Assembly: GCF_963676685.1 (NCBI RefSeq)
Contig: NC_092351.1
Coordinates: 61,008,001-61,072,000, forward strand
Length of the DNA stretch: 64,000 nt
Source of the DNA: Mytilus edulis
Taxonomy: Eukaryota
Reading direction: 5' to 3'
Part shown: positions 31,868 through 58,748 of the stretch, piece by piece
How positions within the stretch are numbered: position 1 is the stretch's first letter
Layout: every line of letters starts with the position of its first letter
The notes under the pieces: generated by a model
What the model was told of the DNA's origin: nothing
Seen by the model: the letters and a program-made list of their open reading frames with translations, nothing else
Database searches by the model: none
Made by a program: the position numbers and the translations under genes

Positions 31868-32041
31868 TGTAGGACTCAAATCTATGGTGGGTTCCAAATC
31901 TATGGCAGATTCCTAATCTATGGCAAATGTGACGTCATGCCATCCCAAATCTATGGCAGATCTTTTTACAATCCTAATCTATGGCAAGTTTTGTAATTTC
32001 CTAATCTATGGCGGATTTTTGTTGTCTCTAAATCTATGGCA
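31868..32041 (+). repeat. Left TIR (31868-31935) and iteron array
   Basis: AATCTATGG at 31879, 31897, 31915, 31948, 31976, 32003 and 32031. Confidence 0.92.
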
Positions 32042-32549
32042 AATTGTGTGCAGATGGAAAACAATGCAGTACACTTACGACCAATCACTTGTCTTAAACA
32101 AGTAGAAATGTACGACAACGAGATCATGTCTATAAACATTTGTAAAATAAACACTCCATAATGGTCAACCCAAAAAAAATCGTAAATGATGCATTTATAT
32201 ATATCGCAGACATCAAGATTAAAATAATCTTCCCCGTAAAGAATAAACATGTTCTAATCTGTGCATGGTACCTGTTTAACTAAACCAACTATGGAGTCCC
32301 TTAGCAAAAAAGACGGCCATTTGTCATAAAAAATATATAGAACTGATTCCATTTCTAAAAGGGAAAATCCATTGTTTTCCCTTTTTACCTTTGTAAACCA
32401 ATTTTAGATTAATTTAAATCATTAAATGCCTTTTTAATGCTTTATTTCTAACTTAAGTATTAGATTTTTCATATTGGCTCAAGAATTTTAACAAATTTTA
32501 CAATATCTTGTAAATTTATTATGAAATGTTTCCTCCAATATACTATATA

Positions 32550-32871
32550 CTAGTCCATAGACAATTTCTAACAATTCACATAGCATAAAATTTGCTATCT
32601 GGTCGTTAGTCCAAAACTGGAGAAGTGACTTTTAATTGTTGTAAAAACACAACCTCAATAAAAACTTGATAAATACCAAATGTTTAATCCACAAATGTTT
32701 TGAATAGATATTTTGGTCTTTCGACCAAAAATAATGTTTTCAAACGATATTGTATTATTCTGGTCTATAGACCAAATATTCATGTCTTTTCTTATTCATA
32801 AAGAAAAACCAATCAAACAATTAAACCAATCTATAGTATGTTTGATACTCATAAACTGGTCTTTAAACCAA
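32550..32871. promoter_or_regulatory. Left cluster of 16-bp palindromes YTGGTC-N4-RACCAR (putative protein-binding sites)
   Basis: 32713 ttggtc-tttc-gaccaa, 32760 ctggtc-tata-gaccaa, 32856 ctggtc-ttta-aaccaa, 32599 ctggtc-gtta-gtccaa, and a degenerate copy at 32550. Confidence 0.65.
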
Positions 32872-33144
32872 AAAAAAAAAAGAAAAAGGAAAGAAGAAGA
32901 AAATGATTCGGTAGAATTTTTAGTATTTATTATCAAAGACAAAAGATCAATATCAACGAATGAGGCCAGATAATAAAAAAACACAAAACAAATATGACAA
33001 AAAGAAACATCTACGATTCACTGTCAATGTCATTCTAATAGCTTTATGTCTCTCACATGTTATTGATAAGTAACTACTAAGATATTTAGGAGAATAAAAC
33101 AACTTTTATTAATGAAATATTTCAAATGTGTTCGAAACTTGTAA

Positions 33145-36100
33145 TTACAACTGACAACTGTCTAAATAATATATAAGTTGGTTTGAAATAGAAGGATAAA
33201 TATGTGATGTAACAATTCTTTCCCAAAGACTTAGAAATATTTTGAGGTAAAATATCAACACTAAATGCAAATATTCGTCTATCAAAAAATACATGAACAA
33301 TGATTCTAAAAGAAAATATATCGCTAAGTATAATCTATGTTTTTGATAATAACTTTTAGTTTCACAAAAATAAATGTATGAAGAGTAAATTTTTCTGGTA
33401 ATTTCTTTCACATTCTTTTTCCTTTTCTTTCCTTGGCATGTTTTCTCTGAAATAGAAGAAACGATATATTTACATAATTTTGCTTAATGCATATTCATCT
33501 TTTTTTCTTCAGCTTTAAAGGAAGATATCAATATGAGGTTCAAAATGGTGATACTTTCGTGACTATTCACGAAAAAAAAATCAATTCAAATGAAAGAACA
33601 AAATATAAATCACATAATACCTTCTGATTCTTTTCTATTTCCTTTTGGTGTCCTTTTTTGTTGTTTTGGCTGTACTTGCACCTGAAATGTAAGAAATCAT
33701 ATACATTGTAGTTTGTATGAACAAATCACGTTTCTTAATAACATCGAATGCAGATTTTTAAATAATTAATATTTCAGTTAACATATAACAGAAGACGATG
33801 GCGAAAAACAATTGTCACATTTAGTAGCGTGATCGACTTCTTAACATTGCAATGATTTCCACAGAAACAAGTATTAAAATGTGTAGTGGGTCGCTCTAAA
33901 GTTGGAGCGATAGGACTGGTTTTTTTTTTTACTTTGCTCCATGTTGAAGGTTCACTGTCACTTTCGAATGAAAAACGTAGAGCGCTGTTCCTTTGATTTA
34001 AAACATTTCGTGACGTATAGTAATTTTGTGTCCTATATTGATAAACTATGTCTTATCTTTTAGTTTAATGAACTCTGGAAAGCATAATATACGGACAAAC
34101 TTATCACACAGACTTAAAGCATTATTTATATTGTGATGATATACCTTTTATACTTTTTTATTTCAATACAATGAAACTGGAGATTAAATTTATTAATATA
34201 TTAAATGAGAAATATGAAAACTTATATAGATAAGAACTAGACCGACTTACAAAACATTCCTCTCGCTCATTTTCCAATAATCTCCTTAGTTCTGCTGGAA
34301 TGTCTTGATCAACGGATGGTCCTTGTCTTTTCAATTGCTGTTTGGGTAACAAAGGTAAAATCCATTTTGCCTTTGATAGAACTTTTGTCCTTCTGTATGG
34401 CAAACTGTCTCTATTTTTTTCTAGATGTCCAAGAAATCCTCCCCACCACTTTTGCTCTGTATGTTCTATTTGATCGGTGAAAAGACATTGCCACTGTGGT
34501 ATTCTAGATTTGATCTTATTTATATCTATCTTCTCGAACAGAGGATTGATAACTTTTGGTATTCCCTTTGGTAAATTAGGTTTTCCGGAAATGAGTTGAA
34601 TAATGCCATGTTCAGTTTTCCATTCGCTGTCTTGGAAAGCTTTGTACTGCATTTTCACATTATTTGTTGCTAAATCCCGTATAAACTTATAATGCAAAGG
34701 TTTCGTATGCTTACGAATGTCGTTAAGGCTTGATGTTATCCATGAACGAATGTCATAAATAGCCTCTATATCCTTAACGTTCGGAAGCATCTCCTTCAGA
34801 CGAGGCATTGTTTCAGCATCATTTCTACGAAGAGTTTCAGCTATTCGACTAAAAGCGGCATCCACATCTTCGTGTGTATGTCCTACTGGTAAAAATGATA
34901 AATGCACCTGAAAAGAAAATTTCCTATTTGTAACAGTATAATAATAGGTGATTTAAATACGCTAACATGTAATGCTAGACTGAACTTACATTATAAGTGT
35001 GTAAAATGCCAAATTGATTCATAGTATGTCTTGTATTATAAGAGTTGACAATACCCTTCGTATTGAAAGGCAGGAAACTTCAAAATGTATATGAATAAAG
35101 AGCACGTGATATGCCCGTATTATTTTCAAAGAATGAAGTTCTAGTACTTCTAAATATCATGTTATAAATCTATAAAAAAAATAACCTTCAAGGGATGTTA
35201 TACTGATAGATATAAACCAGCCTACAAGGTTTCATGAAATCATTTTGAGTTTTTGTCCGAAAACTGACTAATCCCCCCCTCCTTTTATGACTAAAATTCC
35301 ACAACTCGGAACGATAATTGCCATAATATGCAACATCGATAGTATACTTCAATAAACACTTCACCAAAATATCATGAAAAATGTTCTACGCATTTGACAG
35401 TTATTATACGAAAACACTCGAAAAAGCCCCTTTTAAATGGATAAAATTCCTATAACTTGAACACTTTTAAAATCTATAATTTATAAAAATAGAAAGAAAC
35501 TCAGGTAGACAGATCTATATAAGGGAGCTACCATTTGATTTTAATGGGGGGGGGGGGGAGGGGGGGGGGGGCTAGGATGAAATTTGAAAACAATATGCAG
35601 GACAGTTTTGAGTAAAAAAATGAGACACTTGAAAAAAAAGTCAGGTCGACTATTTAGGTTAATAAAAGTCAGGATAAACTAAAAAAAAAAAGGCAGGACC
35701 AAACAGAGTGAAAAATAAAAAGGCAGGACAGAGATTACAGCTTAAAAAAAAATGCAGGACAACATTTTTCATCCTAAATAGTAATTTCTATTCAATATTA
35801 TAAGTGTCACTGGGAAAACAATTTCTAACTAAAATCGTAGAAGTATTTTACTTCCATGCTAAAACCTTATATTACAGGCATCATAACTTACATGATCAAC
35901 CAAAAGTCCCACAAAAAATTCCCAAAAAGGGGTCTTGTAAATGGATGTTTTACAGAGAGGCGTAGCAATAGCATGTATAAACTGTAATCAATGATACATG
36001 TGTGCAATTTCAGAGGTAATTATATTGATAGGCAATAATTAATGTGTCAATTGATCATATATTTTCATTGTCTGGTAAGATACAATGTATACAATGTATG

Positions 36101-39100
36101 TATATACTGTGCACTGTTCTTTTTATCTACTTGAGATGAATGACCCCATGTGGTTAGCATCTTTATCTGTGGAATTATTGTTGACACAAGATAATTAATC
36201 CTTATTAAGATGTCACAGATTATATGTTAGAGAAGAATTATATACAAATCATTAAATTAATATAGTATATAACAAGAGGCTACGTTTTTCAAGTCCAGTC
36301 TTACATTATAGTCCCTCCTCGTGAAAAAGAAGGGGGAAGACGGCCCTGATCCCGAAGTCCCGGGCTTAAAAACATGAAATCCCTAGGTCCCGAATTTAAA
36401 AAAAAAAAAAAGACCCGACATCCCGAACTTCGGAAAGAGAATTCCCGGATCCCCAAAGCGTAAATCCCGAGCTTAAAAACACCCCGAAAAAGGTCCTGCC
36501 GCCCCTCAAAGAACCATTAAATTTCGAATAAAGCAAATCATTGTATTTATTTCTCGCGTAATGATAACACATAAGAATTCAGTGCTGATGAATTTTAATG
36601 CACTATATTTTCAAGAATTTTAGGGAGCACAGGCCCTTATAATCATCCAATACCCATACCCCCCACGGTTGGATCTGCCTATGCAAATATGCTTAATACT
36701 TCCCACAGTTTTAACCCTTAAACCTAACCGTTTTAAATCTAGAAATAACCACACTTTTTAAATCTAGCAATAGATAATTTCTAAGTGAAGAGGAAGTCCC
36801 AAATAAATTTGCCGAGGGGAGGAAAGAGGAACATATTATTTTATGCGTAAAACTATTTTCACCTTTAAGGGTGCACACGCCCATATGTATATACATGTAC
36901 CTTCACAACCACCTGGTAACTGTTCTTTTAAATGAAGTAACAAGAATCGCAATGATATGTAAATTGCAACTTACCTCATTGAAAATACGTTGGTGAACAA
37001 GGAGTTCACAAAAACCCAATACATATCGATTTTTATTTTCCCGCCAACAATTATCTGCTTGCAAGTACAAAATAGGCGGTAACTTGTTACCCTACAAGGA
37101 CAATAATCATAAAATTACTTCAGTATCGTATCTTACCATGTTTTACCTTATGGACATAGTTTTATAATAAACTTCTTATAATTACTCGTAGTAATCCGTA
37201 AATAGCTCCCTAATAATTCATTTCAACTGTCAAAATTGTCGCAAAAAATGACAAAATCGTAAGGGTTTGTAAATGTGTGTGATGCTTAAGGACTCGTTAG
37301 ATAAATCCGTGGATGTGAAGCGGTGCAGGATACCAGGGATTGTTCATAGATTAACTCGAACCATATACAAAGTCAACTGGGATCAGCCTATTCAGACAAA
37401 GAGAGTTTCTACTTTATAAATGATTAAACGAGATTCTATGAAGAAGGCAATTGGGACCGTTAATGAAAATGCAGTGAGATTATAAAATGATAATCATAAA
37501 GAAATAAAAAAAAAGAATTCAATTTATGGAAAAATCAAGTTTGTTTAAAGAATTAATGAAGATTGTATTCAAAATATTGAATCGCCATCATGATGGAGTA
37601 GAATTACGGATTTACATAAAACTTTTTGGGGGCACATTAACCCGTTTTCAAAGGCAACAAGTTACAATAGCTATTTTTATGCCCCACCTACGATAGTAGA
37701 GGGGCATAATGTTTTCTGGTCTGTGGGTCCGTAAGTCCGTCCGTACGTCTGTTCGTTTGTTCGTGTACTTTGGGCACATTCTTGTTAAATATAACAGGGA
37801 TTACGTTAAATATAACAATAAACCATTCTAAAAGCACAAAACTCTGTCATTCAAATTATATGGCTAATCGGGCGAACTTATTTGTTTTGGGTGTATAGAT
37901 TAATTAGTTTCAACAAATTAAAAAGATATGTAGAAATGTGGACCACAGTAAAACTCGGGGACCAATTCACTACTTAATTGATATGGGTCTGTTATCTTAT
38001 CCTTTACATATACTTTCGATTCAAAAAATATATTACTTTTCATATATTGCCTAGGATAAATTCAACTTTTTATTCTTATGATTTTGTGTGATGTCTTCAT
38101 AGGAGTTCAAATCTAAGAATCAGAGATTCCTTGTGTCATGTTGACGTACGGCGAGACTGTTTGCTGTGAAAAAATACAGGGCGTGTCATATAACAAGTAA
38201 TTGGAACTCTTTTCATCTTATTTCCGATTGTTTTCCAATATATTCTTCAAGCTGGAAATGTGACCAATTCAAGCTGAACGCCCTATCACTTGTATACAAC
38301 CAAGGATGTTGGCATTCGAGGAATAAACCAGTATAGGGAGTGCTCATCACCACCCTTACCCCACCCGAAGTCATACATGTATTGACTGATCATACGTTTA
38401 AATTGTGAAGTGTTTTACTTACCATAAGTTTTGAAATCTGGTGAAGAATTAGCATAAGGATATTCATGGTCAGATTAGAGTCGTGCGCATATTGGTTCCA
38501 GTCGAGAAAGGTGAAAAATTTGTTTTGTCCATGAGCTAAAACTCCGGTGACATGTGTCGTTAGTTGGTCAACTTTATTCACAGCCTGCAATAAAACGTGT
38601 CAATAAGACAACCACATATATGGACCAAAGTAAAAGATATATAAATTCGTTTTAAATTAAATATTTTACTATCCTAAAGAAATATAATAAAACAATGATT
38701 TACAAGGCATACTATAAAGAGGAAGTCTGTAACAAACTGACAATATCAAACGATGTTTACGGAACAAGTTACTGCCATATTCCTGCATTTTTGTAGCTTG
38801 GTACATGAATTTTAATGAGAAAAAAAAATGTACACGTATGAATGTATGGATATGTCATTTAATTTACAGTTGTGGCGTCAATTCGCGAATAATTCCTCTC
38901 AAATTGCCGTCTAAAAACTTGCAATGAGATAAAAGCTAAAGTATGTTAAATTAATTGTACATAAAAAAATCGCTCTAAATGGATAGATTGATTTATTGTT
39001 TGTTGCTCAACCTGTATTGCTCTTTAAAAGAAAACGTATGGTAAAAGATACAAAATAAAATCTGCATAATTCCAAAGTTCCACATCAAACTCTATAATCG

Positions 39101-42100
39101 AAAGAAAAACTATGATGTTCGTATATTTCCGAAGAGGGAATTTTCTGTTATATAAAATACCTAACTTACCTTTGCCATTCGACCAACAAAATGAGGAAGA
39201 TTCGTTTTTGCTACAATGAAAACAAAACTTAAAGTTCATTATATTTCAGTCATCAAAGTTTGTTTTAATAGAATAACATCACACTTCCCATTTGAAATTA
39301 AAAAAATGCGAAAAAATAATTCCTTATTCGGTTCATTAGTTTAAATAAAATAGAAAAGATTTTAACTTCAATGTTTTTTTCTGTTCCTTCCAGATCTTAT
39401 TGGTTTTGCCTTTAAAGTAATCAGATGCTCAAAGGCAATTAGAAATTGGCAAACTGAGTCAATAGTATATCGACTTATATAAAACTGACGCAATGTTAAC
39501 TGACTTTTACAAAAATGACCGACCATTTATCTTACGGTCGACCCATTTTTCTCTAAAAAGTCCAAATATTTATCCGTAGATCATAACTTACACTGATCCA
39601 TTCCATCTATAATTAAGCTTAGATATTGTGATGGGGATGTCTTTGCAGCATTTTTCTTTGTGTAATAGTACTTTCTTTCCAACCTGCAAAAATAGATATT
39701 AAACATATTAAAATATTAGTTTGCTGTTCCGCTTGTGTCTAGCAAGCAAAGTCCACAAATACAACCCGATAAATTGATTGTCAGATTTTTATTTTATTTG
39801 TATTGTTAAATATCAGCTGCTTGATACAATATGGAGCGTTTTGAATTCGTTCGCTGCGCTCACTCGACAAAAAACTTCATATCGTGACCTGCAGCTTACA
39901 ATAAATATGCAGACACCGTCACTGTTACACACAAACCTACACAACAGAACACTATCGATAAATGTTATTGGCTGTAGCTATAGTTAATTTATATTCTTCT
40001 ATGTGTAGTCTAAAGTGCCGCATGTGTAGCAGGATCTGCTTACCCTTCCGGAGCACATGAGATCACCCCTAGTTTTTGGTGGGGTTCGTGTTGTTTATTC
40101 TTTAGTTTTCTATGTTGTGTCATGTGTACTATTGTTTTTCTGTTTGTCTTTTTCATTTTTAGCCATGGTGTTGTCAGTTTGTTTTGGATTTACGAGTTTG
40201 ACTGTCCCTTTGGTGTCTTTCTTCCCTTTTTTATAACTTAAGTTGGATTTCATATTTATTAATTGCATATTTACATACATCTGTCTGCTATTGTGTTCTC
40301 TTCGTTCAGCTCGCAATTTTTCTCTCATCACTGGATCATGCGTGGTCTCTATCTGTCGTTCCAAACTTGTACATACTGTGCATTTCGAAAAGGAATTGGT
40401 CTGAAAGTGTAAATACAATTACATACACATAGCATATACTGACAAATGTTTGAGCTACATTCCAAATACTAATTTGTAACTATTTTAGTTGCAGTCTCAC
40501 ATCTACATATACGTAAGAAGTCTAAATTTATAAGTTAAATCCACAGTAAACGTTTTGCAAATAATCAAATCAGTGGCGGATCCAAAAAAATTATAAGTGG
40601 GGACCCACTGACTGCCCAAGAAGGGGCCAGCTCTGGTCATGATTCAGTGATTCCCTATATAACCAACCAAAGTTTCCAAGAAAAGGGGGCCGCCTAAATT
40701 CGCCTCTGCATATACAATTATTATAGTGAAATTGGTTAATATTAAACTGTCCAAAATATGTCCTGGTTTACAGCATCACCTTTGTTTCGTAATGTACTTA
40801 ATATAATGGAATAATATTATTAGTACCATTTTTATAACGCAAAGGAACGTACGCGTTTCAGACCTTATTTTTATTTTAATATATAAGTTTTAACTTGATT
40901 TTTTAAAGATATGGCCTAACTTGATTTAATTTATACCTTTTTGACTTTAAGATTGGGTAAATATTTTTTCCACATTCCGTAGAAGGCTGATGGCATTAAA
41001 AATTCTTCTGATCTTTCCTTCATATCTTCTTTATATCTTAAATAAATCATGCACTGTCGTGTCCGATAAGGTAGTAATAGTGTATTACAGTCGGGCATCC
41101 TGTCAACGTAATATGTAGCGTATTCCTCCAGCCAATTTATAGCTTGGAGTGATTTTATGCTGGCACAGTAGTGTCTCTCCGATACAGAAAAACGTGCTCC
41201 TCCTATGAACTTTTTTCGATTAGAGTAATAGAAATTTTTGTGAATTCCAAGCATTCTCATCAATGCCTTTGGACAAACTACATGTCCGTTCTGTATACGG
41301 AAGTATGGTGTATACTCCATATTAGTTTCAGAGAACTTTTTTAATAACCACTGGTTGCGACCATTTATTGTCTTTGACCAGAATTCTAATCGCATGTTTT
41401 TAACCTCCACGAAAGAGAATTTCTTCGTACAAACTTTACTACAACAGCGTCTACATGACTTTAAATCCTTCTGAATACTTGCTACTTTTGTATGACGAGC
41501 AAGGAGACGACTTCTCTCTGGATCTACAAAAATGTGATATGATAGTTTTGTTAATAAACTAAAACACTAATTTTTTTTATTTTTATTTTTTCTCTTTGCT
41601 TTTTTTCCCGCTTTTCTTATAGCTATACGATAATTGGATCATTAAATGTAATCAATTAATCTTATGTACATGTATTTGAACATGCAATTGACCGTACTAA
41701 GTGTTTCAACCACATGTGATTTAATCAACTGACAAAAGAAAAGATTAACGAACAACATTTAACATATGAATTGATAAAGAACAATTGACCTTCACAAAAT
41801 ATCTGTATGAATCTTTAGGACCATCAATCAACGTTAGCAATAATGGGCACTCATTGAAACATGATTCTCAAATCATGTCAGATTTTAATAGCTAGGCTGC
41901 TCTTCTTTTAAAACACGAAAACAATACGCAATAAATTAAATGCGTTAGGTGCATTTTTCTAGATTAACACCCAACAAGAACTCACAAAGCCCTGATGTAT
42001 AAAAACGATACAGTTGAATAGCTATTTTATAAAAAATCACTAAAAAATAATAGCCAAAGTCCTTCAAACGCCAACTTTGCCGAAGGTAGTTTTAAACGTT

Positions 42101-45100
42101 TCTAATTACGGTAGTAAACACTAAATTTTGTTAAGGAAATTCACAACCATTTAATGTACCGGTACTGAAACAAGTGTGTTATCTTTTGACGAGCAAAGGC
42201 AGGTCGTATTTCTCTTTATATTACTTTCCAACTTATCGATAGAGAGTTGTCTCATTGACACTCATACCACATCAAGTTCCTTTATCTATTATGATAACAA
42301 ACAAAAAAAAACACTTACGTGATTGCGATTCAAGCAATGGTTTTGTTTCTTCTTGGGGAAATGTAGCTCTAACATCATGATACATTTCTGCCATACCAAT
42401 TGATGCATCTGAATACACTGAAACATTTTCATTTATATTGCTTGCTGAGCGAGAACTAGCAAGATATGACATTCCTTCAAAACCAGAAGATAGTGACAGT
42501 ATTTCGGTTGATGCTAGATGAAGTGTTTCCGTATCTTCTTCGTTGAATTCATAAGGCGACGAAGGGCAAATATTGCTTCTCAGTTTTGTGCTAATTTCTG
42601 AACCCATATAACAAGAACTTTCATGTTCACTGCTGGAAATTCCGAAAGCTGGTTCTAACTCGATTAAAGTTGCAGTTACGGAATAATCAAACAGTCCAAA
42701 GTCATAATTATCATCTGATATGTCTCCGACCTTACTGATCACTGGTATTTTTCTGGGTGTACTGGTCATTAAAGCTTTGTTTGGCGATTTTAATGTTGTG
42801 TCATAATTTACTGCATCCTCTTCAAATGACTCTAATGTTTTTGTTTCTAGAATTAACGACAGGCTGGATTCAGCAGTCTTGCTTAAGTCTTCAAAACAAT
42901 ATGAATCAGACTGTCCAAGATTATGTATAACAGAATGTCCAAGATTATACGAATCCCCTAAATTATGTGGCTCCGACAATGAATCTCCTAAATTTACCCC
43001 GTGATTTTCGGTATAATTTAAACACACTACTGAGTTTTCCGCTGATTCTAAAAAATGAGAACCACCAAGATTACTTGAATTTACAAATGTATATTCATCA
43101 GTAGCGCTCGATGCATCAGCGAAAACAGTCACATCATTCAAAATTGATTCAACAGGTAGGATAATTTCCGGCACCTGAATGGAGAATGTCAATATCCGTC
43201 TCTGAAATAAACAATCGATTATTATGAGCATAAACTGTTAAAAGTGACAATGGATATTTGTAGTCGTATTTTATTCGCTGAACTCCGGCAGTTTTTGTTG
43301 TGTTACTGTGTTCATGTTACCCACGATCTCTTTTTACTCGTATATATATTCATACGGTAAAAAATCAGAAAGCTGATGAATATATAAAAAAGAAGATGTG
43401 GTATGATTGCCAATGAGACAACTATCCACAAAAGACCAAAATGACACAAATATTAACAACTATAGGTCACCGTTCGGCCTTCAACAATGATCAAAGCTCA
43501 TACCGCATACTCAGCTATAAAAGGCCCCGATAAGACAATTTAAAACAATTCAAACGAGAATACTAACGGCATTATTTATGTAAAAATGATGAAGCCTTGA
43601 AACGTATGAATATTGAAAAGACTAAGGGATAATATATAGACCCTTCTACAACGAAATTTGTTTGACATGCACACGTATAAAAATTGCGGTTTTTATCCAA
43701 CGCAATCATAGGTTTGAACGTAGTTTTCAATTTAGACTCGTATATATATATATATACAACTCGTCTAAACATCAACCCATATATATATATACTGCATACA
43801 TATAGTGTAAACGTTTTGAAACTGTATTGCTTGACATTTTTTTACTATTGATAGTTTTGAATTCTTTACGTTTTACTTTTACGTAAGTGCGTGTAGTAAA
43901 AAAAGGGAGGGGTTGTTCCTCGACGCAACAATGTATCAATCAAAATTGATCTTCTTCAATATTTAAAATAATATAAGCTATGAGAAAAATCAGATGGATT
44001 TAAATTAATTTTTGTTGTTATCTTCACCCAAAAAAAAAATCCATCAAATTTGGGATCAGCATATATTTTTAAGGAAAAAAAAATCACAATTCCCTCCCCT
44101 TTGAAGTTTAATGGTCGTTCTCTAATTTTGGTGCTATTTTCACATTTCTTGATCGGTGTGAGAAAAATATTTCTCTAATGTGTGTGCTATGTTCACATTT
44201 CCTGACCGGTGTGAGATAACTCAAATAATGCAAGTTCTTTCCGTGTCCGGTTGTCTCCTACACGAGGTTAATGTAGCCTTCGTAGATCAGCGGAATAAAA
44301 CGACTGAATTATTCGGGTAAGGTGCGTGTGAGAGAAAATATTTCTCCTCACTATTTAAAAATCTGTTCTCGGCAACTGATTGGTTGAAATTTAATTGTGA
44401 CGTTAAATTTTCTTGGTTTTCTTCTTAATTTAACATACAACATTCAATTGAAAGTGTTATTTAAGTCTCATCCCTCAACAAATACATGTAAATACATTGT
44501 ATAAACTTGAACTAACACAAATAAAATGAGAGCCATTATAAGAGACTATTAAAATGCATATATATAAGTCACTAAAGAATATGAAATAAAATACTATTTA
44601 CACATGTACAAACGTGCTGGAATAAACAAAACAAGAACACAAAGTAACTGTAGGTCTGTATAAATTACCTATTTTTTTTATTTTTTTTTTATTTAGAGTT
44701 GTCGTCTTGCTTTATTCATACAATATTATATAGGCTTATTAAACAGTTGTTACAGTAGCTAAAACAAATAGCAAAGAAACAATCACCACTGCTTCAGACT
44801 TAATCCCACTGAATGTGTGGATCGTAGCTTTTAAGTTATGCAATGTCCGGATAAAATGTTACAGAAGCTGCGCCCCGTGGTGAAAATTGCCGTAAAAGTA
44901 ATGTATGTATACTAAGTATTCCGATCTATAACGAAAAATCTTACTCGCGATCAAATCATCAAAGCAAGAAAACACTTACATGTAATGCGATTAGATCTCC
45001 AATTATACATGTAACGTTTAGGAGGATTAATACGTTACTATTAACAAGATTATATTAAAGTCTGTTTTGTGAAAAAAATCATAACTCGATAAACTTGTCT

Positions 45101-46170
45101 AAGTGTTTTTTTTATTAGATGTCCGCTGCTGACCCCATACTTTTAAAATGTATCATTTGATATCAGTCCCGTGACTAAAAACAAGTTCAGCTTATTTTAA
45201 AATATACAGTGCTAGGTTATTTTACTGTCACAGAATTTAATACGATGGTCGTAGGAAATTGTATATGGCACGTCGAAAATAGGATAGGAAGGTACAAACA
45301 TGTGCAGTTTCCAGGAGAGAAATTTTGTATATATATAAAAAAAAAAAGGAAACATTTTAGTCTTGCTACCCACGTCTAACTAGCAAATCGATGTTTATCC
45401 TCAAAAATACCAGATTAACCTTTCTCTTATCTGATTTATTAGGTTAATAAGATCCACCAATTTTCCCTGATCTTAATGTTAAAGCATACCCAAAGAAAAG
45501 TCATATATATGATCGATCTGCATTTGATATGTTAAATTCTTTTAAAAAGGAGTGAAAGATATAATCACAACAATAAATGTAATAAAAGAAAAACGATATG
45601 ATTACAAAAGGCAATTCTCTGCAAGAGACCAAATTACACAGACATTTACCGCTATATGTCACCATACGGCCTTCAACAAGACACAAACGAGAAAACTAAC
45701 GGCGTAATGTATGAACAAAATAAGGATAGAAAAAAATAATATGTTAATAAACTCACATAAATAATAAAACAGCAACAAACGACAACATTACCACTGAATT
45801 CCAGGCTCATGAATAGGGACAGGCACATTTAGAATGTGTCCGAACCAGGTATATAAGCGAACGCCTTAAACCCCCCTTTTTCTGTCCAGTATATATTCGG
45901 TTTAAAAAAAACGCCAATAACTACCCAAATGTATCTTGAAGTCTTTGATCATGAATATTTAAAACGTTTTCATTGTAAAAATATGTGTGAACCTCTATAT
46001 TTTAATATATTTTTTTTTATTTTTTTTTTTTAAAATATGAATATTTCAAATTGACTTACCTCTGACACTGGGTTGCAGTTCTCTCTTATATTCGTCTTGA
46101 CACCATTCAAAGTTTGAACAGATAACAACACGTTTAAACACAGAGCCGATAAAAAAATACAGTAGTCCAT
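33145..46170 (-). CDS. DDD/E transposase, Sola-like/DUF7869-type, ~1035 aa, 11 exons (first exon and last-exon extent uncertain)
   Basis: Exons 46060-46170, 42319-43174, 40937-41523, 40279-40400, 39592-39683, 39170-39210, 38423-38584, 36975-37091, 34251-34907, 33621-33681, 33145-33446; GT-AG, phase-consistent, no stops. Motifs CRRCCSKVC, KCTVC..H, LIIDGMDQ, LYLQADNCWRENKN, FLPVGHTHEDVDAAFS, and a basic NLS-like C-terminus. Confidence 0.85.
37677..37785 (+). mobile_element. Short internally deleted HINE-like element in a transposase intron
   Basis: Same 5' (tatgccccacctacgatagtagaggggca) and 3' (gtgtactttg..cacattcttgt) ends as 47278-47796. Confidence 0.7.
40016..40232 (+). repeat. Retroelement-tail (SINE-like) repeat in a transposase intron
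   Basis: Near-identical to 9579-9796. Confidence 0.8.
43385..43580. repeat. SINE-like repeat in transposase intron 1
   Basis: Inverted match to 12945-13075 (tataggtcaccgttcggccttcaacaatg). Confidence 0.65.
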
Positions 46171-46353
46171 TATGTTCTAGTTGAAAAGTAAGAAACACAT
46201 GGTTTAAAAATATACATGTAAAAAATGCGCACGTGTCTAGCAGGCGTGGCTTCGCAATGCGATTAAATATAACCAGTGGTGAGACATTGTAAATGTAGCA
46301 GTCCACTAATTTTTTTTCTAAATCGAGATCAAACGTTTATATATTACGCAATA
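46171..46353. promoter_or_regulatory. Putative bidirectional promoter between head-to-head genes
   Basis: 183 bp between the predicted ATGs (46170 on -, 46354 on +); contains CACGTG (46230) and the palindrome TCGCA-A-TGCGA (46252). Confidence 0.5.
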
Positions 46354-49054
46354 ATGTCGGGTTCAGAGAAATGGAAATTCGTAATCGAAAACGGAAGACT
46401 TTGTGTAGAGGAAAATGGTAGATATTTTGAGGACATCGACAATGTTGGAACAACAAGAGACTTTGGAATTATCAAGGTGACTATCTTGACTGTATTGAAT
46501 GACATCTTCAAATGTTAGGGCAAGTACATTTAGATTTTGAATTCCTTGACATCATGTCAGTGTTTCAAACAAAATCATTGATTGATCATGTACATCTCTC
46601 TATACAAATATCTCCACTCTTGTTTTCAAAATGAAGTATACTTTTATAAATGTTAATCCATCAATAAGCTGCATATTCTTATTACATTTACCCTTGTGAA
46701 GTACCAACTGTTCATTTTAATGTGGAACGGTCATACAAATCACATTTATTTTATTCTTAGACTAGACTTAACACAATATCGATCAATACATGTATATTAG
46801 TTTTCGTCAATACAGAAATACGAATGTTGGCTTCATGTTCAATGCTTGTCAACGTTCACAAAACACATGATGTTTTCTTATAATTTAAGGTTACATATGA
46901 ATCTGGAAAAGCGAAAATGTATAGTTTGAAAAACTTATGCGAAGGTCTTGGTTTTGGGCCAGCTGTCAAGACTCGTTCAGGTTTTATGAAAATATGGGAC
47001 TCATTGAAAGGTGAGAAATGTATTTAAAATTTGTGTGTTGTTCTTGTATCATGAGTATATAGTATATGTATGGATATTGGCTTCTCTTGCATTCGTCACA
47101 ACTCGGCCGAATCCGTACCTCCATCTAAAGATAGAAGGAGAGTAGCGGCGACTCCGAGGATTGCCAACTGCTACTCTTGATTTTGACCTTTTGTCAGATA
47201 TTCGGAATCCTCTACTTTTCTCCATGTAGTACCAATGAAAAAAAAAACTACCAACCCTTACTTTTTAATTCATATTGTTATGCCCCACCTACGATAGTAG
47301 AGGGGCAATATGTTTTCTGGTCTGTGCGTCCGTTCGTCCGTCTGTCTGTTCGTTCGTCCGTTTGTCTGTTCGTTCGTCCGTCTGTCTGTCCGTTCGTTCG
47401 TCCTTCTATTCGTCCGTCTGTCCCGCTTCAGGTTTCAGTTTTTGGTTAAGGTAGTTTTTGATGAAGTTGAAGTCCAATCAACTTGAAACTTAGAACACAT
47501 GTTCCTTATGATATGATCTTTTTAATTTTTAAACCAAATTAAACTTTTGACCCCAATTTTACGGTCCATTGAACATAAAAAATGAAGGTGCATGTTTCAG
47601 GTTAAAGTTTTTGGTCAAGGTAGTTTTTGATGAAGTTGAAGTCCAATCAACTTGAAACTTAGTACACATGTTCCTTATCATATCATCTTTCTAATTTTAA
47701 TGCCTAATTATATTTTTTATTCAATTTCATGGTCCATTGAACATGGAAAATGATAGTGCCGAGTGGGGCATCCGTGTACTTTGGACACATTCTTGTAATT
47801 ACATATAGTTAAACTAGTCATTCATTAAAATCTAATACAATTCTTGTTATTTTTTCAAAGTGTTTGAAAGAAAAAAGGTACCAAAATTTTAAATGTGTGA
47901 GCATTCTAAGAGAGAATCATTTCCCGCCAAATTTTCAATTGATTATATTTTAAAAAACAAAGTCGCGGACCTATTATTTTTTCCTGCTTTTTAGCCTATG
48001 TTCAGTTATTTATATAATATCAATATATACCAGTTGATTAAAAAGCTAGTTATTATCAAAAAGAGAAGCTAACATCCTTAATCGAACGAAGGCTTAAGTT
48101 TTTGTCGTATATATTTTAAACATTGACTTTGTTGCGATGCCAAGAGGATGAAATTGTTTTTAGAAAATGACTACCATGAACAAACATTGATAATAGCTTA
48201 TTTCCATGACTAGTAATCCTCGCTCAATACTCCACTGGACCTGATACGGCACCCAATAGTACTTGTGGTTAAAAATTTGATTTTATTCAACAAATTAATT
48301 AATGAACTGCTGGTACGTGACCAAATGGTCAATGTTAATCATCCGTATGATTGCTCTATGGAATGTTTGCAAAGCTTCAACGGAGGCACTTTCTTGGCTA
48401 GATAATATCAATGAACTTGTATTGGTATATTCGTTAAGTGTTTGTATGTGTTTTATTTCGTGATAGGAGGGGTAAAGAAAAAGGCAAAAGGGGTGGGTTA
48501 TTGGTTGTCTTTGCCTACTGCAATGTACTAGTAGTGTGCGTGTGAGTGCTTTTCTATGTTTACTTGTCCAATTCGAATTGTCTTTTTTTTACTGAAGAAT
48601 ATAACTGTAGCAAACAAGTTTTAACTACAATATGTACATAACTTTTACAGCAAACGTAGATAATTATCAGCTACAGACATCTTCAACAGATAACATCGAT
48701 CAGTCGAAGAACCAAGTTAATATGAATATTTCAGGTAGATGTGATTCTTTTAATACATATTTGATATTTACACACGCTTTCGTGAAAACAAGTTACTAAA
48801 AATATAAACTAATCCGTAAATATGAGAAAAAAAAAACAGATTGAAAAACTCTTACCATAACCAATAATATTAATTCATATTTTATGAATAAAAGAAGTTA
48901 TAGTATACTAGTATGCGAGATGACAAATAACGATTCTATAGAGGTCCTATTATCGCCGTATTACATTTGCGAATATTTTGTTTTTAAATTGCATCTTCAC
49001 TTTTCCGCACAGACCCCTTTTGGATCAGCCACTGAAATACAATGTTCAAAAATG

Positions 49055-49085
<31 letters not shown>

Positions 49086-52000
49086 ATATAAATGGAATGT
49101 AATAAAAATGCAGTTATGGAATTATGAGCTGTGTAAAACTTGCAATTGAAATGCTGTATCCGTAAAATATTCAATAATAATGGACAGGCCGTCTATACGG
49201 ACAAAAGGTCTTTTGCCCCCCCCCCCCCCCCCCCCTATTTTTTCCATTGTCATTGTTTCTTTAAAAAATTGAACACGCACCGGCGTGACACGGAGAAAAT
49301 AATGGCAATTTAGACAGCTAAAACTGTTCTTATGACATGACATTGGAATAAAAAAATCATGTGTCACGTTGGCGCACGGAACACCTGCAAAATGAATGAT
49401 AATTACAATATTTGAATTATGAAAGGAAGTTTACCAACTTACCTCACCCAGTTGCTAATATTAGTGGTTTTGAAGTTCACCCAAACAAACATTCAAATCT
49501 CAGGGACTATTCTAACATAAGACGTAGCTTTCCGAAACAGAATTTAAGAAATGAGAAAATAGGGGGGCCAAAAACAGGCCTTATCGTACCAGAATTGCCA
49601 GTTTTCCTGCCACATCGACTTCTTGCAACAGAGATTGGTTTTGTTTCTGTTATAATTAAGAGTTTTTATTTCTATTCACTGAATCATAATATGGGTCATG
49701 TGGTCAATTTTATTCGTTTAACTTAGTTCTAAAGCATAAAACATGGCGCGAACGTTACGATTTTGTTCGAGTATCCGTACAAAAAATGATACAAGAAATT
49801 GGAAGATTTTTTTTTTACAAAACATACATTAAAATTAACATTATAATAATTGTGTTTGCAAAGTTCCATTCTATTGTTGTGACAAATACGAAAAATCTAA
49901 TTCAAGATATTGCCTTTTTCTGTGAATAGATGTAACGGGAGGGGAGGATTTAACCAGGACTGACGACAACGTAAACACATTGGATAATGTGCAAAGAAAA
50001 TCCTCGACGCGTATGTCACCAGTCCACACGAAATTATTGTCACCAATGGACAGTTCTGAAGGTATTTTTTTAATCCTCCTTCTTGCAAACAATTGATCTG
50101 CTGCGTCGTAATAATAGTCATGTGTAATTAAAATAGGTATGCAAGTAATATAAAATATATTCCACTTAATATATATATGATTTTACAATAAAACTGGAAG
50201 AGACCAAGATCAAGTAAAACATGTTAATGAAAATTATTTACTATTTGAATAAAAACCATAATTACGATGCGAAAATGCTATGTATATTTTATTTTTGCAA
50301 CAGATGCATCGACAGTTGAAGATATTCTAGAACGTAGCATGAGTTCTTGCACTGAAGCGCATATGAATAAAGAAGACGTTTCCGATAGCACACCAGTTAC
50401 AGTGGAGCAGTCAATTTTGGACGATTATTTAATAGGTATGATATACCATCTTCATTCTCTTAATAGGTGCTACTCATGGTATGAAGTATAGTGTCTTTTA
50501 ATCTTACTTTTTATAGCTGACCAAATGTTGTATTGGCTTTGCTCATTGTTGAAGGCCGTATTATGGTGACCTATAGTTGTTAATTTGTGTCATTTGGTCT
50601 CTTGTGAGGGGTTGTCTCATTGGTTATCATATCACATCTTCTTTTTTTTATACTTGTCTGTTTTTTTGACATCGCGTAATATATTTTTTTCTCTAGTTGC
50701 TGTTTTTGTTTAATAACCATTTAAAAAAATAATAGTGAATGTGTTGAATTTATGTTAAATGTCCAGTGGAAAATATTATATTATATGTGTCTATCCAACA
50801 AGCCCAGCCAAGACGTTAGGCTTTATTCATTATGTAACACTCCGGAAGAAGAGTCATCATACAAGGACACATTGGAGACATTGGATTGTTATTTTCTCAG
50901 CGGAGAAGCCGCAGGTATTAATTTTTAAGTCGACGATGACGATTACGATGACGGTGACGTCCAGTGGCAAATATGATGGCATATAATGGCGATTGAGTGT
51001 TAATGTTTTATTAATACACTCATATATTGTACTAGATAGCATGCTAAATTGTGTTTTAACCCAGTACTTCTCAGTTCTTTTCTTTTACTACGAAATGTTA
51101 CATGTTTGGCGAAAAAGTAAAAATGGGTAAGTCTTAGTTTTGAACAAACTTGGGGATCGAACACACGATTACAAGGATCGCTTCCAGAAGCAAGACCACC
51201 GAGGAGGTCTTTTCTTATTGCGTATACGGGTACTGGAAATTGTAACCATATCAAAGTTCAGAAATATTACTTTTATTTCAAATGTTCAAACACTTTCTCA
51301 TTAACTGAACAACATATCTTTTTGTATATTTTGAATTGCTGATTTTCCATTCTAAAATGATAGCATTTGTTTACTTTTAGGAGACACATTAAAGGTACAT
51401 ATTCAGAACTTAGTTACACCTGCCGATGATCGCTGTTTTCGAAATCTGGACACGAAACATGCTCACTGTCTAAAACAATTTTATGAAAATCAGCAAATAT
51501 GTCATACAATTCTCATTGGCAACATTGTCAGCGATGTTACTACTAATATAGATAATTTGTCAAAGCTTCTTCAAGAACCTGGCAAAGTAGCAGTTGAAAC
51601 TTTAGGTGGTAATCATACAAGACATGCGCTACAATGTTTATTCGCAAGCCAAACTAAACCTATTAGCATGGTAACATGTCGGTTATACAACAAATTACCA
51701 GACGAGTTGGCGCTACAATTAGGATATGAACACAATGCATCTAATACAATAGGAAAACCGACAAGTTTTGTTGATTTAGTAAAGGTGTTTCGAAAAGAAG
51801 CAACAAAAATAGTAGGAGATACAGATATTAGCTGCATGCAAAATAGTGAAGTAAAGCAATGGAAAGATATTTTATGTACCATTCTAGGGATGGACAGAAA
51901 GGCGGAAGAATTTCATAACAAGTACAAAATTGTTTTAAAAATTGCAAAATCAAAGGATTCAGTATGGAGAAAATTTTTAGAATTCTGTTCCGCTTTCGAA

Positions 52001-55000
52001 ATGAATGAAATTAGAAATACTCCAAGAGGATCTTTAAAGGTTACACAGTTGAGAGATTTTTCAATGCTTTCTAGTGATAACCAAATACATATTTTGGAAG
52101 AAACATTACAGACAAAAGACTGGAGAGTATTTAAGAGAGAAGTAGAAAGGTAAATAAATGCAAATCATGACGTGTGAACTGTAAAACAAATTCACTGCAT
52201 TATATGATTTTCTTAAATGTTGATTTTATATTTGTAAATGAACGATACTTCCTTACTATTAATTGTTCATTTCTTGGTTTGTAAATTATGCTTCAAAAGG
52301 CATTCAGCAAACATTTACGTTATATCGGGAATGTTATTAAAAAAAAAAAGAACCGTGACTTTCGTAATTTAATTCACAGTTTAAGGAAAAATTGGAGCAT
52401 TTCATCGACCTCAGTAAGGAAATTCATTTGTAATATTATGATATTAAAAATAAATTATGAAAAAAGGAATGTACACACCAGTTTTCAAAGATTTATCACC
52501 TATAAAATTCTTCACGAAAACAAAACACAAAAAAAATACCTAATAAACGCTTACACAAGAATAAAGGAAATGTGCAGGCAATGTTATGAGAGACAGCAAC
52601 CAAACGACACATATAAACTAAAACTATCTAGAGACAACACATAGCCTTACAAATATAGGCAGTCGCCATGCAATTTGTCAAGCTCTTAATTTTCCATTAT
52701 ATACATTTTGTGAATAAGTTACACAAAGACTACCAAAGATCTTTCGTTTTATCGAAATCACAAACAAAAAATGTATTTATGAAATGTCAATCGCAAATTC
52801 ATCTCGTCAACCTTTTCGATAGGTCGTGTATTTGGTGGTTGATGTAGACTGCAGCCTTGTAATTTTGTAAACTTATGTTTTTTTTTGGTTTTTTCTTAAT
52901 GTATAAAAAGTGCAATTTCATAGATCGCATCGATATTTTTGGTAATAAGCCCACCTTTCATTTAAAAAAAACCCGGTATATTGAAATATTACAGAAAAAA
53001 GCTCGCACTGTACTTATATCAGTATTGAAGTTACTAACTTTGATGATATCACTGGATTTATTTTGTAGTGTTAGTTCAGATCGAAAGAAAACAACTGGGA
53101 AAACAAAAGCAGATCCGTCAGATGTTGACAGAAAGATTAATGAAAGGTATTTTAGCACTTTAAACGAACATACAGAATAAGTTTCATGCCTCCATTTATG
53201 ACAATTTTTTTCTGAATTTTATCATTTCACGGGATTTCCAAATGTCATTGATTTATATGATTGCGTACTTTAATGTTTGAACATCATTTGGTGCATTTCC
53301 GAACGCGCATATAAATCATAAATCCCTACTGCATGGCTGGCGGCACAAAACTGCCATTTTGATTTGTTTTAGTTTACGATTTTATTCCAAAACTACCGTT
53401 TTGTTAATTACTGTTAAGAGATATTTTTTTTTAAATTTTAATGTTTTAATTTGTTGATGAAATTTTTTAATATTAAATACTAGACTCGCAAATTTCTGTT
53501 GCAAGCTGGTTTAACTGTAATAAGGGAATAGTTCACTTCTTCTTTATGGCAAGCATTTAAAATGTGTCTTTGCCGATTTGAATTTACCCATTAAATAATT
53601 GAGTAATTTTATTATATTTATCTAGTGAGTGTAAAATAAAACAACTGACTACCGAAAGAGAAAAATTGTCAACTACTTCATCAACATTAAAATCAAAGTT
53701 GACAGAAGAACAAAAGAAAACAAAGGACTTCGAGACATTGTTGAATCAAGAAAGGAAAAAATGCAGCGCACTTGAAATTAAATTACAGCAATTGAGGAGA
53801 TCAGAGACTGAACTCAAAGTTGTCTTGGATAAGCAGATTGATAAAAATGAAAAATCTAGTAATCTTCTACAAGTTGAAAAAACAAAATACCAAACCCTGG
53901 AAGAAATGTACAATAAATTGGTAAGTTGAATATTCTGTTTTATAGGGCTGTAATAGCCCTTTAGACAAAACGCTTATTATTTTGTTGATGATATGTGGAA
54001 TAATATTCTGAAACAGACTTACGATAGTTATAAGATCACATTAATGATGCATAAAGATTTGTTCAATTGACCATACAGTCTGCTGATCTTTATCTTGCAT
54101 TACATAATTAATCAAACATATTTATCAGCTTAGAATAAATACGAGAGACAACAAAGAAAAATGGTTTATACAATAAACATCTTGCATGTTATGTACCTGT
54201 TTTAAACATAATAATAAAATAGTGCTTATTTAAATGTTCTCAATACGCAAACTCTGAAAACAATGATGTTTTTACAGGAAGAAGCAAAAGCTTGTTTAGA
54301 AAAGAAAGTTCAGGAATTTGAAGAATCTATTAGATGTCAACATACTGAAAAACACATAAGCCAAGTAAACTACTCTATTGTAAGTTTTATAACCTACGTA
54401 TATATTTACCTAACAATAAAAAAAAATGTCCTTTAATTCTTTGTTAATTGTTTTTCATTTGTCTTTTTGGGGACTTGTATATAGCTGACTATGTGGTATG
54501 AGTTTTGCTAACGATGGTAGGCCGTGCGGTGACCTATAGCTGTTAATTTCTGTGTCATTTGGTATCATTGGCAATCATATCACCCATTCTTTTTTACAAT
54601 AAGACATTTTTTGTTTGTTCAACAAATGATATTAACTTTGTTGATCTGAGTGTACGTAATTAACTTAAAATCGGGAAGATTTGTTGAGTTTCGTACACGT
54701 GTAGTTCTGCTTTCGTTGCAAGTTACAAAATAATTTTGACCCCTGTATTCATAATTTCTCTTTTTTTGTATTTGGTCAGATTCTATTATTCATATGCATT
54801 TCCTTTACAAATGATTGATTTTCATTGGATAATTTTAGTTTTTCCTTTTTATTCTAGTTTATTGTAAATTTTAGTTCCAACGTGTGTATCGTCAAGTTTG
54901 TTGACTATTATAAAATTGAGAAAGGAAATGGTGAATATGTCAAAGCGACAACCACCCGACCATAGAGCAAACAACATTTTATACATTTTATAATGACTAT

Positions 55001-56577
55001 TATGTATATCAGTCTAGTATGTCAAGTGAACGTTAAGTTTTTCAATATAGATTTGTATATTAAGTTTGTTTGCTGTTTATGACTACATATTACTGTAACT
55101 GTCTGTGACGTGCCATTGTCATTAGAACACTTTTCATAAAGTCTCTTAAAAAGATATACATAACATATTTTTATATATTTACAGGTATCTGATAGAGTCT
55201 CGACTCCAAAACAAAAACTGAAAAATGACTGCAGTGACACTTTAAACAAGAAGAAAAGAAGGATGAGTTCAAAGGTAAATAAAAGAATAAAAAAAAGGTG
55301 TACAAACAATTATAACAAAATCTCCGATTACAGAATAATTCTGGCTGTGACAGTATTGGCGTAAATAGACAGTGGGCAAATTTGAACATTCTGGACATTT
55401 CTGTCTCTCCAAGAATGTTTTCTATCCAGAGCAATTTTGAAAAAAAAGTTCTCAAAACTTGTGCTTTACTCCAAATCTTTTTGAGCCATGTGGGCCATAT
55501 TAGTTGGCAGGTGGAATCATTAAATTTTTTAAAACAAAATATTCCAATGATGAGTATTGTCGAATTTAGATAAATCTGGCAATATAATTTCAGAGGGGAA
55601 GATTTGCTAAAAGGTTTACAGATTACGACAATACATGTAGTACGCTTTTTTAACCTACTTTTAGGACGAGTTTAACTGCTAGATAGGTGGAGCCCAGTCG
55701 GCCATGTCTTTAAACCTTGTCAATCTTTCTGGTCTAGACACGAAGAAATACACGGTGTGGTATAAACTCTATCATATGTTTTGTGCAGTTGTAAGATGCT
55801 TATTTTTCATTTATGTTATAGGAATTTGAAGTTGGTACGTCTGTTGAAGCATTTTGGTATCCAGACAAGTGTTGGTACACTGCAAAAATACTAATGAAGA
55901 CAGGAAAAGGTAAGTACTGTTTTATTAAAACAAAATTTGGAGGACAAGTGTTATCAGATATTATATCAGACTGTACAAAATAATTCTGTCGTATAAAGAA
56001 ATTAAAGTGGAAATGTTTGTACTCAATCAACACATGTACAAAATGTATGTAAGTTGAAAAATAATCATATTATTAAAATTCTCCAAATCATGGTAGCAAT
56101 CCTGATGAAGCAATTCAACAAAAAAAGACTTGGCGTTTATTTTTACAGAACAGTACTTGTACTAAACTATCGTTTCGGTATATATTTATTTCAATAAATT
56201 GTTTTACTTATGAACTTTGTTTTAAATCTGTTTGCAAACTGAACGCCATGTATCAAATTTACTATAATATGGATTTTTTCCAAAGTACTACTTTTAGGCG
56301 TTGCATCGTCCTGAACATGTTTGTACTATTTTCCGATGGACGTACTTTTTAAGGCTTGTCACCACTACTTGATTGAAGTCAGTTACTCTTTACTAGTATC
56401 ATTATAGTTTCAACATTCAAGCAAAATTAGACCACAATTTATTATTCATTAATACTCAGATCTTTTAAAAATAAATTGATTTTTTTTACAGGCTATGAAG
56501 TAAAGTACGATCTTGATAAATTTGTCAAAGATCTCCCTTTGAAATATGTAAGAGCAGAAAAGATATCTACAGAATAG
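46354..56577 (+). CDS. ParB/Srx-like domain + coiled-coil + NLS + Tudor-domain protein, 694 aa, 12 exons
   Basis: Exons 46354-46476, 46890-47010, 48651-48734, 49930-50061, 50304-50435, 51381-52149, 53069-53146, 53626-53920, 54278-54364, 55185-55274, 55822-55909, 56492-56577 (2085 nt, open, GT-AG). ParB-like: VHIQNL..FRNLDTKHAHCLKQ..ILIG..VETLGGNHTRHALQ..RLY..LALQLGYEHN. NLS: KKKRR. Tudor: FEVGTSVEAFWYPDKCWYTAKIL..GYEVKYDLD...LKYVR. Confidence 0.82.
47278..47796 (+). mobile_element. HINE/DINE-1-like element with a (TCYG)n microsatellite
   Basis: 5' gcccc..ggggc hairpin, GTCC/GTTC/GTCT microsatellite at 47325-47425, ~170-bp internal tandem, 3' subTIR gtggggca plus a small stem-loop. Confidence 0.7.
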
Positions 56578-58615: not shown

Positions 58616-58748
58616 ATAGTTTTAAAGGTAATAGGATTATAATTTAGTACGCCAAACGCGCGTTTCGTCTACACAAGACTCATCAGTGGCGCTCATATCA
58701 AACTGATATTTATAAAGCCAAACAAGTACCAAGTTGAAGAGCATTGAG
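58616..58748 (-). repeat. Retrozyme-like fragment with a hammerhead (58649-58692, GUU triplet) inside the transposon right end
   Basis: acgccaaacgcgcgtttcgtctacacaagactcatcagtggcgc. Confidence 0.75.

Follow-up and report, generated by a model that had tools for sequence, protein, structure and literature searches.

What kind of element carries the DUF7869-type transposase gene found at positions 33145 to 46170 of this stretch of Mytilus edulis DNA (64,000 nucleotides of contig NC_092351.1, here called the window), and what does that element use as its target? The original prediction, made from the letters of the window, saw an intact Sola-like transposase of 11 exons with TGT...ACA termini and an apparent TA target, and proposed a distinct lineage on those grounds. 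Our comparisons point to a different arrangement: a two-gene transposon of 25.9 kb lying inside an unrelated miniature inverted-repeat transposable element (MITE), likely moved by its own DDD transposase, and encoding a second protein – with a predicted ParB fold and a Tudor-like end – that likely binds arrays of palindromes. We consider this account as a whole to be probable; its parts are graded separately below.

Boundaries of the transposon and of the surrounding MITE

A central issue is the extent of the mobile unit. The features that define it are as follows (TSD, target-site duplication; TIR, terminal inverted repeat).

32341..58225, no strand: giant DNA transposon, 25,885 bp, AACTG...CAGTT termini; other copies stop matching there
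32337..32340, plus: left copy of the 4-bp TSD, ATAG (flank comparison)
58226..58229, plus: right copy of the 4-bp TSD, ATAG (flank comparison)
32341..32400, plus: left TIR; 36 of the 40 outermost positions are complementary to the right end, the match fading by about 60 bp
58166..58225, minus: right TIR, pairing with the left TIR of the giant transposon
31868..32336, plus: left part of a Ginger2-like MITE of about 1.1 kb, TGTAG end, interrupted by the giant transposon
58230..58914, plus: right part of the same MITE, CTACA end, with a TATA flank at 58915-58918

Evidence for these boundaries came from the transposase region as found in four other copies (C6:19.65M, C6:76.0M, C14:26.6M and C561), which can be aligned with the window between about 32320 and 58229, or until their contigs end. 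The match breaks at AACTG/CAGTT in the three chromosomal copies, the left end of the C14 copy breaking just inside; the ends of the C561 copy coincide with those of its contig. The TGT repeat is absent from all four in the regions retrieved, and for this reason 31868-58914 was rejected as the span of the transposon. Joining the flanks of the transposon gives a sequence that aligns without interruption at 29 of 60 MITE loci (some being one copy retrieved twice), and because the joined flanks run unbroken across these loci we conclude that the transposon inserted into the MITE. That the interval 32341..58225 is a whole giant DNA transposon, Sola-related and with a 4-bp TSD, leaves very little room for doubt.

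The duplications are consistent with this. All three complete copies of the window's family have one: ATAG in the window, CAAA and ATAG in the two copies on C6. Across the clade, for which 11 of 12 listed end pairs were examined, an exact 4-bp TSD accompanies 10 of 11 paired elements (seven of eight in one set, together with ATTT, TTTG and AACA, the last from a filter that required a TSD); the sole one among the 11 to lack it, a C12 element, counts against our reading. Similarity among the four other copies is 98.4-99.8%, and between them and the window copy about 90.5%; from this we conclude that the family was mobile recently. The copy at C14:26.55-26.60M is without the left TIR and contains two large insertions, of about 13 kb within transposase exon 2 and about 5 kb within the accessory gene.

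What, then, are the TGT...ACA inverted repeats? They exist, with the ATTA and TATA flanks first reported, at 31868 and 58914 – outside the interval stated in the original prediction – but they belong to the host MITE and not to the transposase element. Searches with the TGT ends gave the 60 loci, mostly elements of 0.9-1.4 kb whose match to the 31868-58914 span is confined to its outer 470 and 690 bp. The family is abundant (691 first-look candidates), with TGTAG ends and a TATA-biased 4-bp TSD. Among distinct and complete copies, 37 of 42 have an exact 4-bp repeat, which is TATA in 30 of those 37. TATA duplications cannot separate a 2-bp from a 4-bp TSD, and 12 copies are informative: a non-TATA 4-mer is repeated in seven (AATA three times, CATA, TATT, TGTA and TATC), the other five being one base off, and none of 100,000 permutations attains seven. 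Readings of TA, TAT or 6 bp as the MITE's TSD were rejected: a 3-bp repeat occurs in 0 of 42 copies, and non-TATA copies repeat exactly 4 bp. A purine precedes TATA at 80 of 84 MITE ends, and at empty paralogous repeat units next to the L020 copy 4 nt are missing at the site in four of eight alignments, the rest differing. The left flank in the window, TATTA, is likely TATA with one inserted T. Ginger2 is characterised by TGTNR ends, a 4-bp TSD and an RTATAY target (PMC2836005; here and below, statements about cited papers refer to their accessible portions), and the split MITE agrees with the non-autonomous Ginger2 elements in all three.

The lineage originally proposed, defined by TGT...ACA ends and a TA target, drew on two genuine observations: the inverted repeats do bracket the gene, and their 4-bp flanks agree only in TA. 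Yet TGT ends occur in no other copy, intact MITEs of about 1 kb explain both halves, the TSD of the MITE is itself 4 bp, and the inner TIRs have a perfect ATAG duplication; we give this proposal virtually no chance. Other copies show 4-bp TSDs – an outcome the original prediction had itself named as decisive against it – and the giant transposon lacks the TA duplication of Tc1/mariner elements.

The transposase and its Sola relatives

The gene at the heart of the locus occupies the minus strand.

33145..46170, minus: DUF7869 (Sola-related) DDD transposase gene, 11 exons (open GT-AG model, Pfam, spliced contigs, dN/dS, the ratio of nonsynonymous to synonymous substitution rates)
46170-46060, 43201-42319, 41523-40937, 40400-40279, 39683-39592, 39210-39170, minus: exons 1-6 (gene model)
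38584-38423, 37091-36975, 34907-34251, 33681-33621, 33446-33145, minus: exons 7-11 (gene model)

The 11-exon model has 1,044 codons, GT-AG signals at all introns and zero internal stops. Exons 2, 3 and 9 occur in two contigs whose source runs were guessed to be RNA, and exon 7 in one of the two; because the offsets of these exons equal the summed lengths of the intervening exons, we conclude that exons 2-9 are spliced as modelled. The claim of an intact gene is thus borne out for the open frame and for these exons; exons 1, 10 and 11 were not placed in the two contigs, and the NCBI model P0004 differs from ours at its start and end. One of the contigs has four extra letters within exon 3. The closest database proteins (95-98%) are labelled Mytilus and perhaps derive from the same assembly, so they are not independent. 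The core of the protein has a dN/dS of 0.06 (p 3e-14) relative to the copy at C6:19.65M.

The three motifs that had been picked out – IIDGMDQ (39613-39593), QADNCWRENKN (37061-37029) and GHTHEDVD (34883-34860) – do lie on separate minus-strand exons, and the suggested Pfam search placed three of 12 pieces scanned, exons 7, 8 and 9, in PF25273/DUF7869 above cut-off. D594, D679 and D721 are likely the catalytic residues; among 115 relatives (P0004 numbering) D516 and D643 are invariant and at least 90% retain D601. For P0004 the AlphaFold model has good confidence from about residue 255 onward, and it matches RNase H-type folds: IstA, TnsB, Mu, integrases and Mos1/Metnase (Z 8.3-9.1). Mos1 stands among these because the RNase H core is common to both, and its presence does not denote Tc1/mariner membership. 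With DUF7869 set aside, the core matched no named family in Atlas. Oyster relatives P0005, P0016 and P0091 have an OTU protease domain at the N-terminus.

The relationship to Sola was traced within the same genome. Profile A1 matches, at E 1e-47, an intronless open reading frame (ORF) from a family of short elements that end in GAGCC and are flanked by ATAT/AATT (AWWT); the AWWT duplications were read on sister copies L207, L211 and L214, and the Sola label is based on the TSD and not on a Repbase entry. Direct BLASTP between the two transposases gives 20% identity over 391 amino acids (E 3e-8). Short elements with G-starting ends and AWWT duplications (L206, L207, L211, L212 and L214; 3.2-5.5 kb where ends were found) score on PF25273, and DUF7869 therefore also covers canonical Sola1-like transposases.

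Sola elements are defined by a DDD transposase, a 4-bp TSD and variable ends, and are mostly 2-9 kb, some exceeding 15 kb (PMC10741241), with TIRs reported at 11-1124 bp; an AWWT target is the hallmark of Sola1 (PMC3845634). The giant transposon has the DDD triad in an RNase H fold, the 4-bp TSD, TIRs and homology to the AWWT family. It departs from canonical Sola1 in its target: AWWT-type duplications number none of three in its own family (ATAG, ATAG, CAAA) and one of 10 in the clade (ATTT). Since it is homologous to AWWT elements yet its own targets are not AWWT, we file it as Sola1-related and not as canonical Sola1. What it shares with the short Sola1 elements of those two sources is the DDD transposase, the 4-bp TSD and a homologous core, whereas their canonical-like counterparts in the mussel genome are 3-5.5 kb long with G-starting ends, AWWT targets and DFSQ/DFAQ motifs, and the giant element is intron-rich, has two genes, AA ends, ATAG/CAAA targets and DGMDQ. 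Every one of the 115 relatives has the first-D motif D-[GNA]-[MA]-D-[QHN], where the short elements have DFSQ/DFAQ. A distinct DUF7869 lineage therefore survives from the original prediction as a Sola-related subgroup recognised by this motif, but the grounds then given, TGT ends and TA, came from the MITE.

The closest described design is that of Sola1-1_Ec32 from Ectocarpus, an element of 21,549 bp with AACCG ends, a 4-bp TSD and an opposite-strand gene for a ParB-like and methylase protein (PMC12477816). Both elements are giant (21.5 versus 25.9 kb), with AAC-type ends (AACCG versus AACTG), a 4-bp TSD, imperfect TIRs and a ParB-like accessory gene opposite in strand to the transposase. They differ in host, alga versus animal, and in what is fused to the ParB-like domain, an N4mC/N6mA methyltransferase in the alga and a coiled coil with a Tudor-like end in the mussel; the comparison is one of design and not of protein sequence. 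The transposon of the window is a variant form of the giant, ParB-carrying transposons related to Sola1 and does not represent a lineage that targets TA.

The accessory gene and the palindrome arrays

Across a short spacer, head-to-head with the transposase, lies the second gene of the element.

46171..46353, no strand: spacer of 183 bp between both predicted start codons; same head-to-head layout in four other copies
46354..56577, plus: accessory gene, 12 exons, 694 amino acids, open (gene model, P0001, dN/dS)
46354-46476, 46890-47010, 48651-48734, 49930-50061, 50304-50435, 51381-52149, plus: accessory exons 1-6 (gene model)
53069-53146, 53626-53920, 54278-54364, 55185-55274, 55822-55909, 56492-56577, plus: accessory exons 7-12 (gene model)
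51381..52149, plus: ParB/sulfiredoxin-fold domain and helical region, motif GGNHTRHA (fold prediction, structural matches)
55822..56577, plus: Tudor/Agenet-like C-terminal domain, two exons (weak Agenet profile, phmmer, dN/dS)
32600..32870, no strand: left subterminal array, four copies of TGGTC-N4-GACCA with at most one mismatch (motif count)
57484..57952, no strand: right subterminal array, six copies of TGGTC-N4-GACCA (motif count)

The spacer is likely a shared promoter. The large exon of the accessory gene matches the NCBI model P0001 at 95%, and the 694-codon frame includes one exon added from that model. An RNA-type contig stops matching exactly at the predicted donor, 52149, and continues for 468 letters; exon joins beyond this point rest on splice signals, on P0001 (maybe from the same assembly) and on dN/dS. 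The gene is present in five of five copies: of the four others, one is free of lesions and three are damaged by a frameshift or at a splice site. Its dN/dS is 0.34 for the whole gene (p 6e-6) and 0.05 for the Tudor part. We think it highly probable that the gene is a working part of the transposon.

The nature of the protein emerges chiefly from structure. The predicted model of the large exon (pLDDT, the predicted local distance difference test, of 96) was compared with 48,161 chains by one structural aligner, and the top nine matches all belong to the ParB/sulfiredoxin family (Z 6.1-9.4): they include PadC (Z 9.4, root-mean-square deviation 2.7, 95 residues aligned), KorB (9.0), Pnob8 ParB (8.0), SerK, Srx, SbnI and Spo0J. 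By sequence the exon gave weak sulfiredoxin and DndB matches, no Pfam family, and only E 0.05-0.8 in PDB sequence searches; at least 90% of the 71 ParB-like homologs share GGNH-R-A. A coiled-coil-like region separates the ParB and Tudor-like parts. The C-terminus has phmmer matches to Tudor proteins, and homologs P0138, P0190 and P0134 have weak Tudor-like C-terminal matches. A methylase motif was not found in the 694-residue model, nor a methylase Pfam family in P0001 or the 71 homologs. The nearest named cluster in Atlas is fungal DUF3723 (score 0.96), which a paper listing links to studies of Starships; we treat this as a lead only.

The arrays are specific to each family. TGGTC-N4-GACCA occurs 12 times within the transposon, 10 of them at most 750 bp from an end, and nowhere else in the window; 30 shuffles gave a mean of 0.2 and a maximum of 2. 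Both other complete copies retain it. Families on C3, C12, C7 and C1 each repeat a distinct palindrome of their own close to the ends, and four short AWWT elements have no such array.

Related families of this genome end in AACTG, AACGC or AAGAG and are 17-40 kb long; a pattern derived from the ends gave 32 matches, against 5 with a reversed control. Their TIRs vary from about 40-60 bp in the window's element to about 450 bp and more than 1.2 kb in two related families. A candidate at C8:82.5M with AA...TT ends and a TSD was rejected as a dispersed repeat with no terminus. Five AAGAG-ended elements of 16-20 kb were seen (C1:7670801-7688745, C3:70998853-71018738, C5:69824457-69841967, C11:53036446-53055923 and C14:33905144-33921714), and the four that were checked have a 4-bp TSD. 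The copy at C1:7.67M (17.9 kb) has palindrome arrays, no transposase or ParB match, and only its ends in common with the C12 element; these elements are likely large non-autonomous derivatives.

A clear ParB-like partner accompanies the transposase in three of five transposase-bearing families examined. The C3 and C12 families, whose transposase exon is 38-40% identical, have a head-to-head ParB-like exon and coiled-coil frame as in the window. Beyond the mussel, ParB-like and DUF7869 proteins have adjacent or near accessions, on contigs of equal length, in Saccostrea (XP_062608883/884) and Branchiostoma (XP_078670991/993, XP_078695072/073, XP_019625503/509, XP_019616710/724 and KAI8522101/104): six pairs, two of which are probably a single locus in two assemblies, with linkage inferred from accession order. 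ParB-linked transposases form a single clade, supported at 0.998 and covering 19 of the 63 tips, in a tree whose sampling favours close relatives; the tree was built from every second non-focal row with a single outgroup family, and gives the clade no position relative to Sola1-3. In Haliotis a ParB-like and Tudor-like protein of 543-548 amino acids (P0138, P0243-P0245) occurs once per species in four species and is a candidate domesticated copy. The AACGC family is young (C7:63071212-63099629 and C7:61983441-62004031; L070-L075, with about ten more matches) and has palindrome arrays of its own and a transposase that is partial and frameshifted; one copy also contains a 166-bp tandem array.

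Proposed role of the accessory protein and wider meaning

How might the two genes work together? In a cut-and-paste reaction, D594, D679 and D721 would excise the element at its AA ends and integrate it through a cut staggered by 4 nt. Both genes would be co-expressed divergently from the 183-bp spacer; the ParB-like domain would load on the family's own parS-like palindromes, the protein would dimerise via its coiled coil, and the Tudor domain would dock on methylated chromatin proteins. The outcome would be the pairing of ends 26-40 kb apart, or the shielding of the element from silencing. We hold the loading of a ParB-like domain on palindromes to be tentative, close to evenly balanced. The predicted fold and the repeated palindromic sites resemble bacterial and plasmid ParB/KorB/Spo0J with parS, although identity is 8-16% and the mussel element has no ParA. 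A further parallel is with red algal Plavaka (EnSpm) elements, in which the ParB-like PAG3 lies beside inverted-repeat or palindrome arrays (bioRxiv 10.1101/2025.02.11.637652): these too are giant DNA transposons with a ParB-like accessory gene and inverted-repeat arrays, but their transposase is of another superfamily, PAG3 is fused to a 2OG oxygenase, and the arrays adjoin the gene and not both ends.

Several observations weigh against our account, and some of them favour other roles for the accessory protein. The Agenet match of its C-terminus is below the Pfam cut-off (E 0.006, 17.5 bits versus 27), and raw reads of two RNA runs gave almost no depth over either gene. Just four of 20 ParB-like clusters looked up pair with a transposase, the remainder not being scorable. 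A winged-helix region of the transposase (374-451) resembles RFX (Z 7.1, root-mean-square deviation 3.2, 65 aligned; E 0.049); it could itself read the palindromes and therefore weighs against the ParB binding step. Together with two further points – the AACGC family (C7/C8), which has arrays and gave no ParB match, and the stronger selection on the Tudor part than on the ParB exon – it supports the alternative that the arrays are binding sites of the transposase, while the ParB-Tudor protein regulates the shared promoter, counters silencing or acts through Tudor as a tether to target sites. Subterminal repeats bound by the transposase are common in hAT and CACTA elements. The C1:60.8M family likewise has arrays, ParB appearing only as fragments of E 0.5-3.5 at the expected place. 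Against this alternative, short relatives with a homologous transposase have no arrays, palindromic repeats are the binding sites of ParB proteins and the red algal transposons have such arrays next to ParB-like genes, and the ParB-less family, with its frameshifted partial transposase, may move in trans. We regard it as a serious possibility, if short of probable.

Could the accessory gene instead be neutral captured cargo, with no role in transposition? The ParB exon alone has a dN/dS of 0.42 that is not significant (p 0.08), and there are homologs with no evident transposase neighbour: the one-per-species Haliotis cluster, and a ParB-like exon at C11:31908792-31909409 with no DUF7869 match within 40 kb. 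Selection on the gene as a whole nevertheless speaks against cargo, as do the head-to-head arrangement in three families at 38-40% transposase identity, apparently in two phyla, and the grouping of ParB-linked transposases in a single clade, with the sampling already noted. Neutral cargo is in our view quite improbable. As for the fullest version of our own account – a giant (about 17-40 kb) Sola-related lineage of molluscs and amphioxus with a ParB/parS-like system, in which a ParB clamp on the end arrays, with Tudor in place of the algal methylase, would couple end pairing or anti-silencing to histone marks – we consider it unlikely as stated in full.

Elsewhere in the window three further features were seen. 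A single-exon frame of 578 codons at 4390-6126 (minus) combines Cys/His clusters with a middle part like a coiled coil and an end that is likely a beta-propeller, and is B-box/TRIM-like by eye. At 6874-9476, inverted repeats of 250-300 nt, 96-97% complementary and about 2 kb apart, likely mark another DNA transposon or MITE pair. At 21338-25906, two direct repeats of 179 nt (88%) surround broken frames that by eye resemble the pol of a BEL/Pao long terminal repeat retrotransposon.

The term DUF7869 is absent from the searchable literature. Papers relevant by title and abstract to ParB in combination with Sola, or with DNA transposons of animals, were limited to those on Ectocarpus, on red algae and on adenine methylases; subscription papers and Repbase Reports lie mostly outside that search, so this is no proof of absence, and Repbase may hold such families already.

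The apparent TA target is a by-product of one element having inserted into another, and the claim should be abandoned. What takes its place is an intact, recently mobile, two-gene mussel transposon that ties an uncharacterised Pfam family, DUF7869, to Sola-type transposition. The ParB-accessory design, described so far in algae in the literature that could be searched, extends to animals with a different effector. Intron-rich elements of this kind get annotated as host genes and are missed by ORF-based surveys of transposable elements; one survey of bivalves required ORFs of at least 300 amino acids and gave Sola1 as about 5.4 kb (PMC10294476). Because a single genome holds several families that differ in their palindromes and in their ParB-like proteins, it would lend itself to a cross-specificity test of what ParB-like accessory proteins do, and of how very long DDE elements pair their ends.

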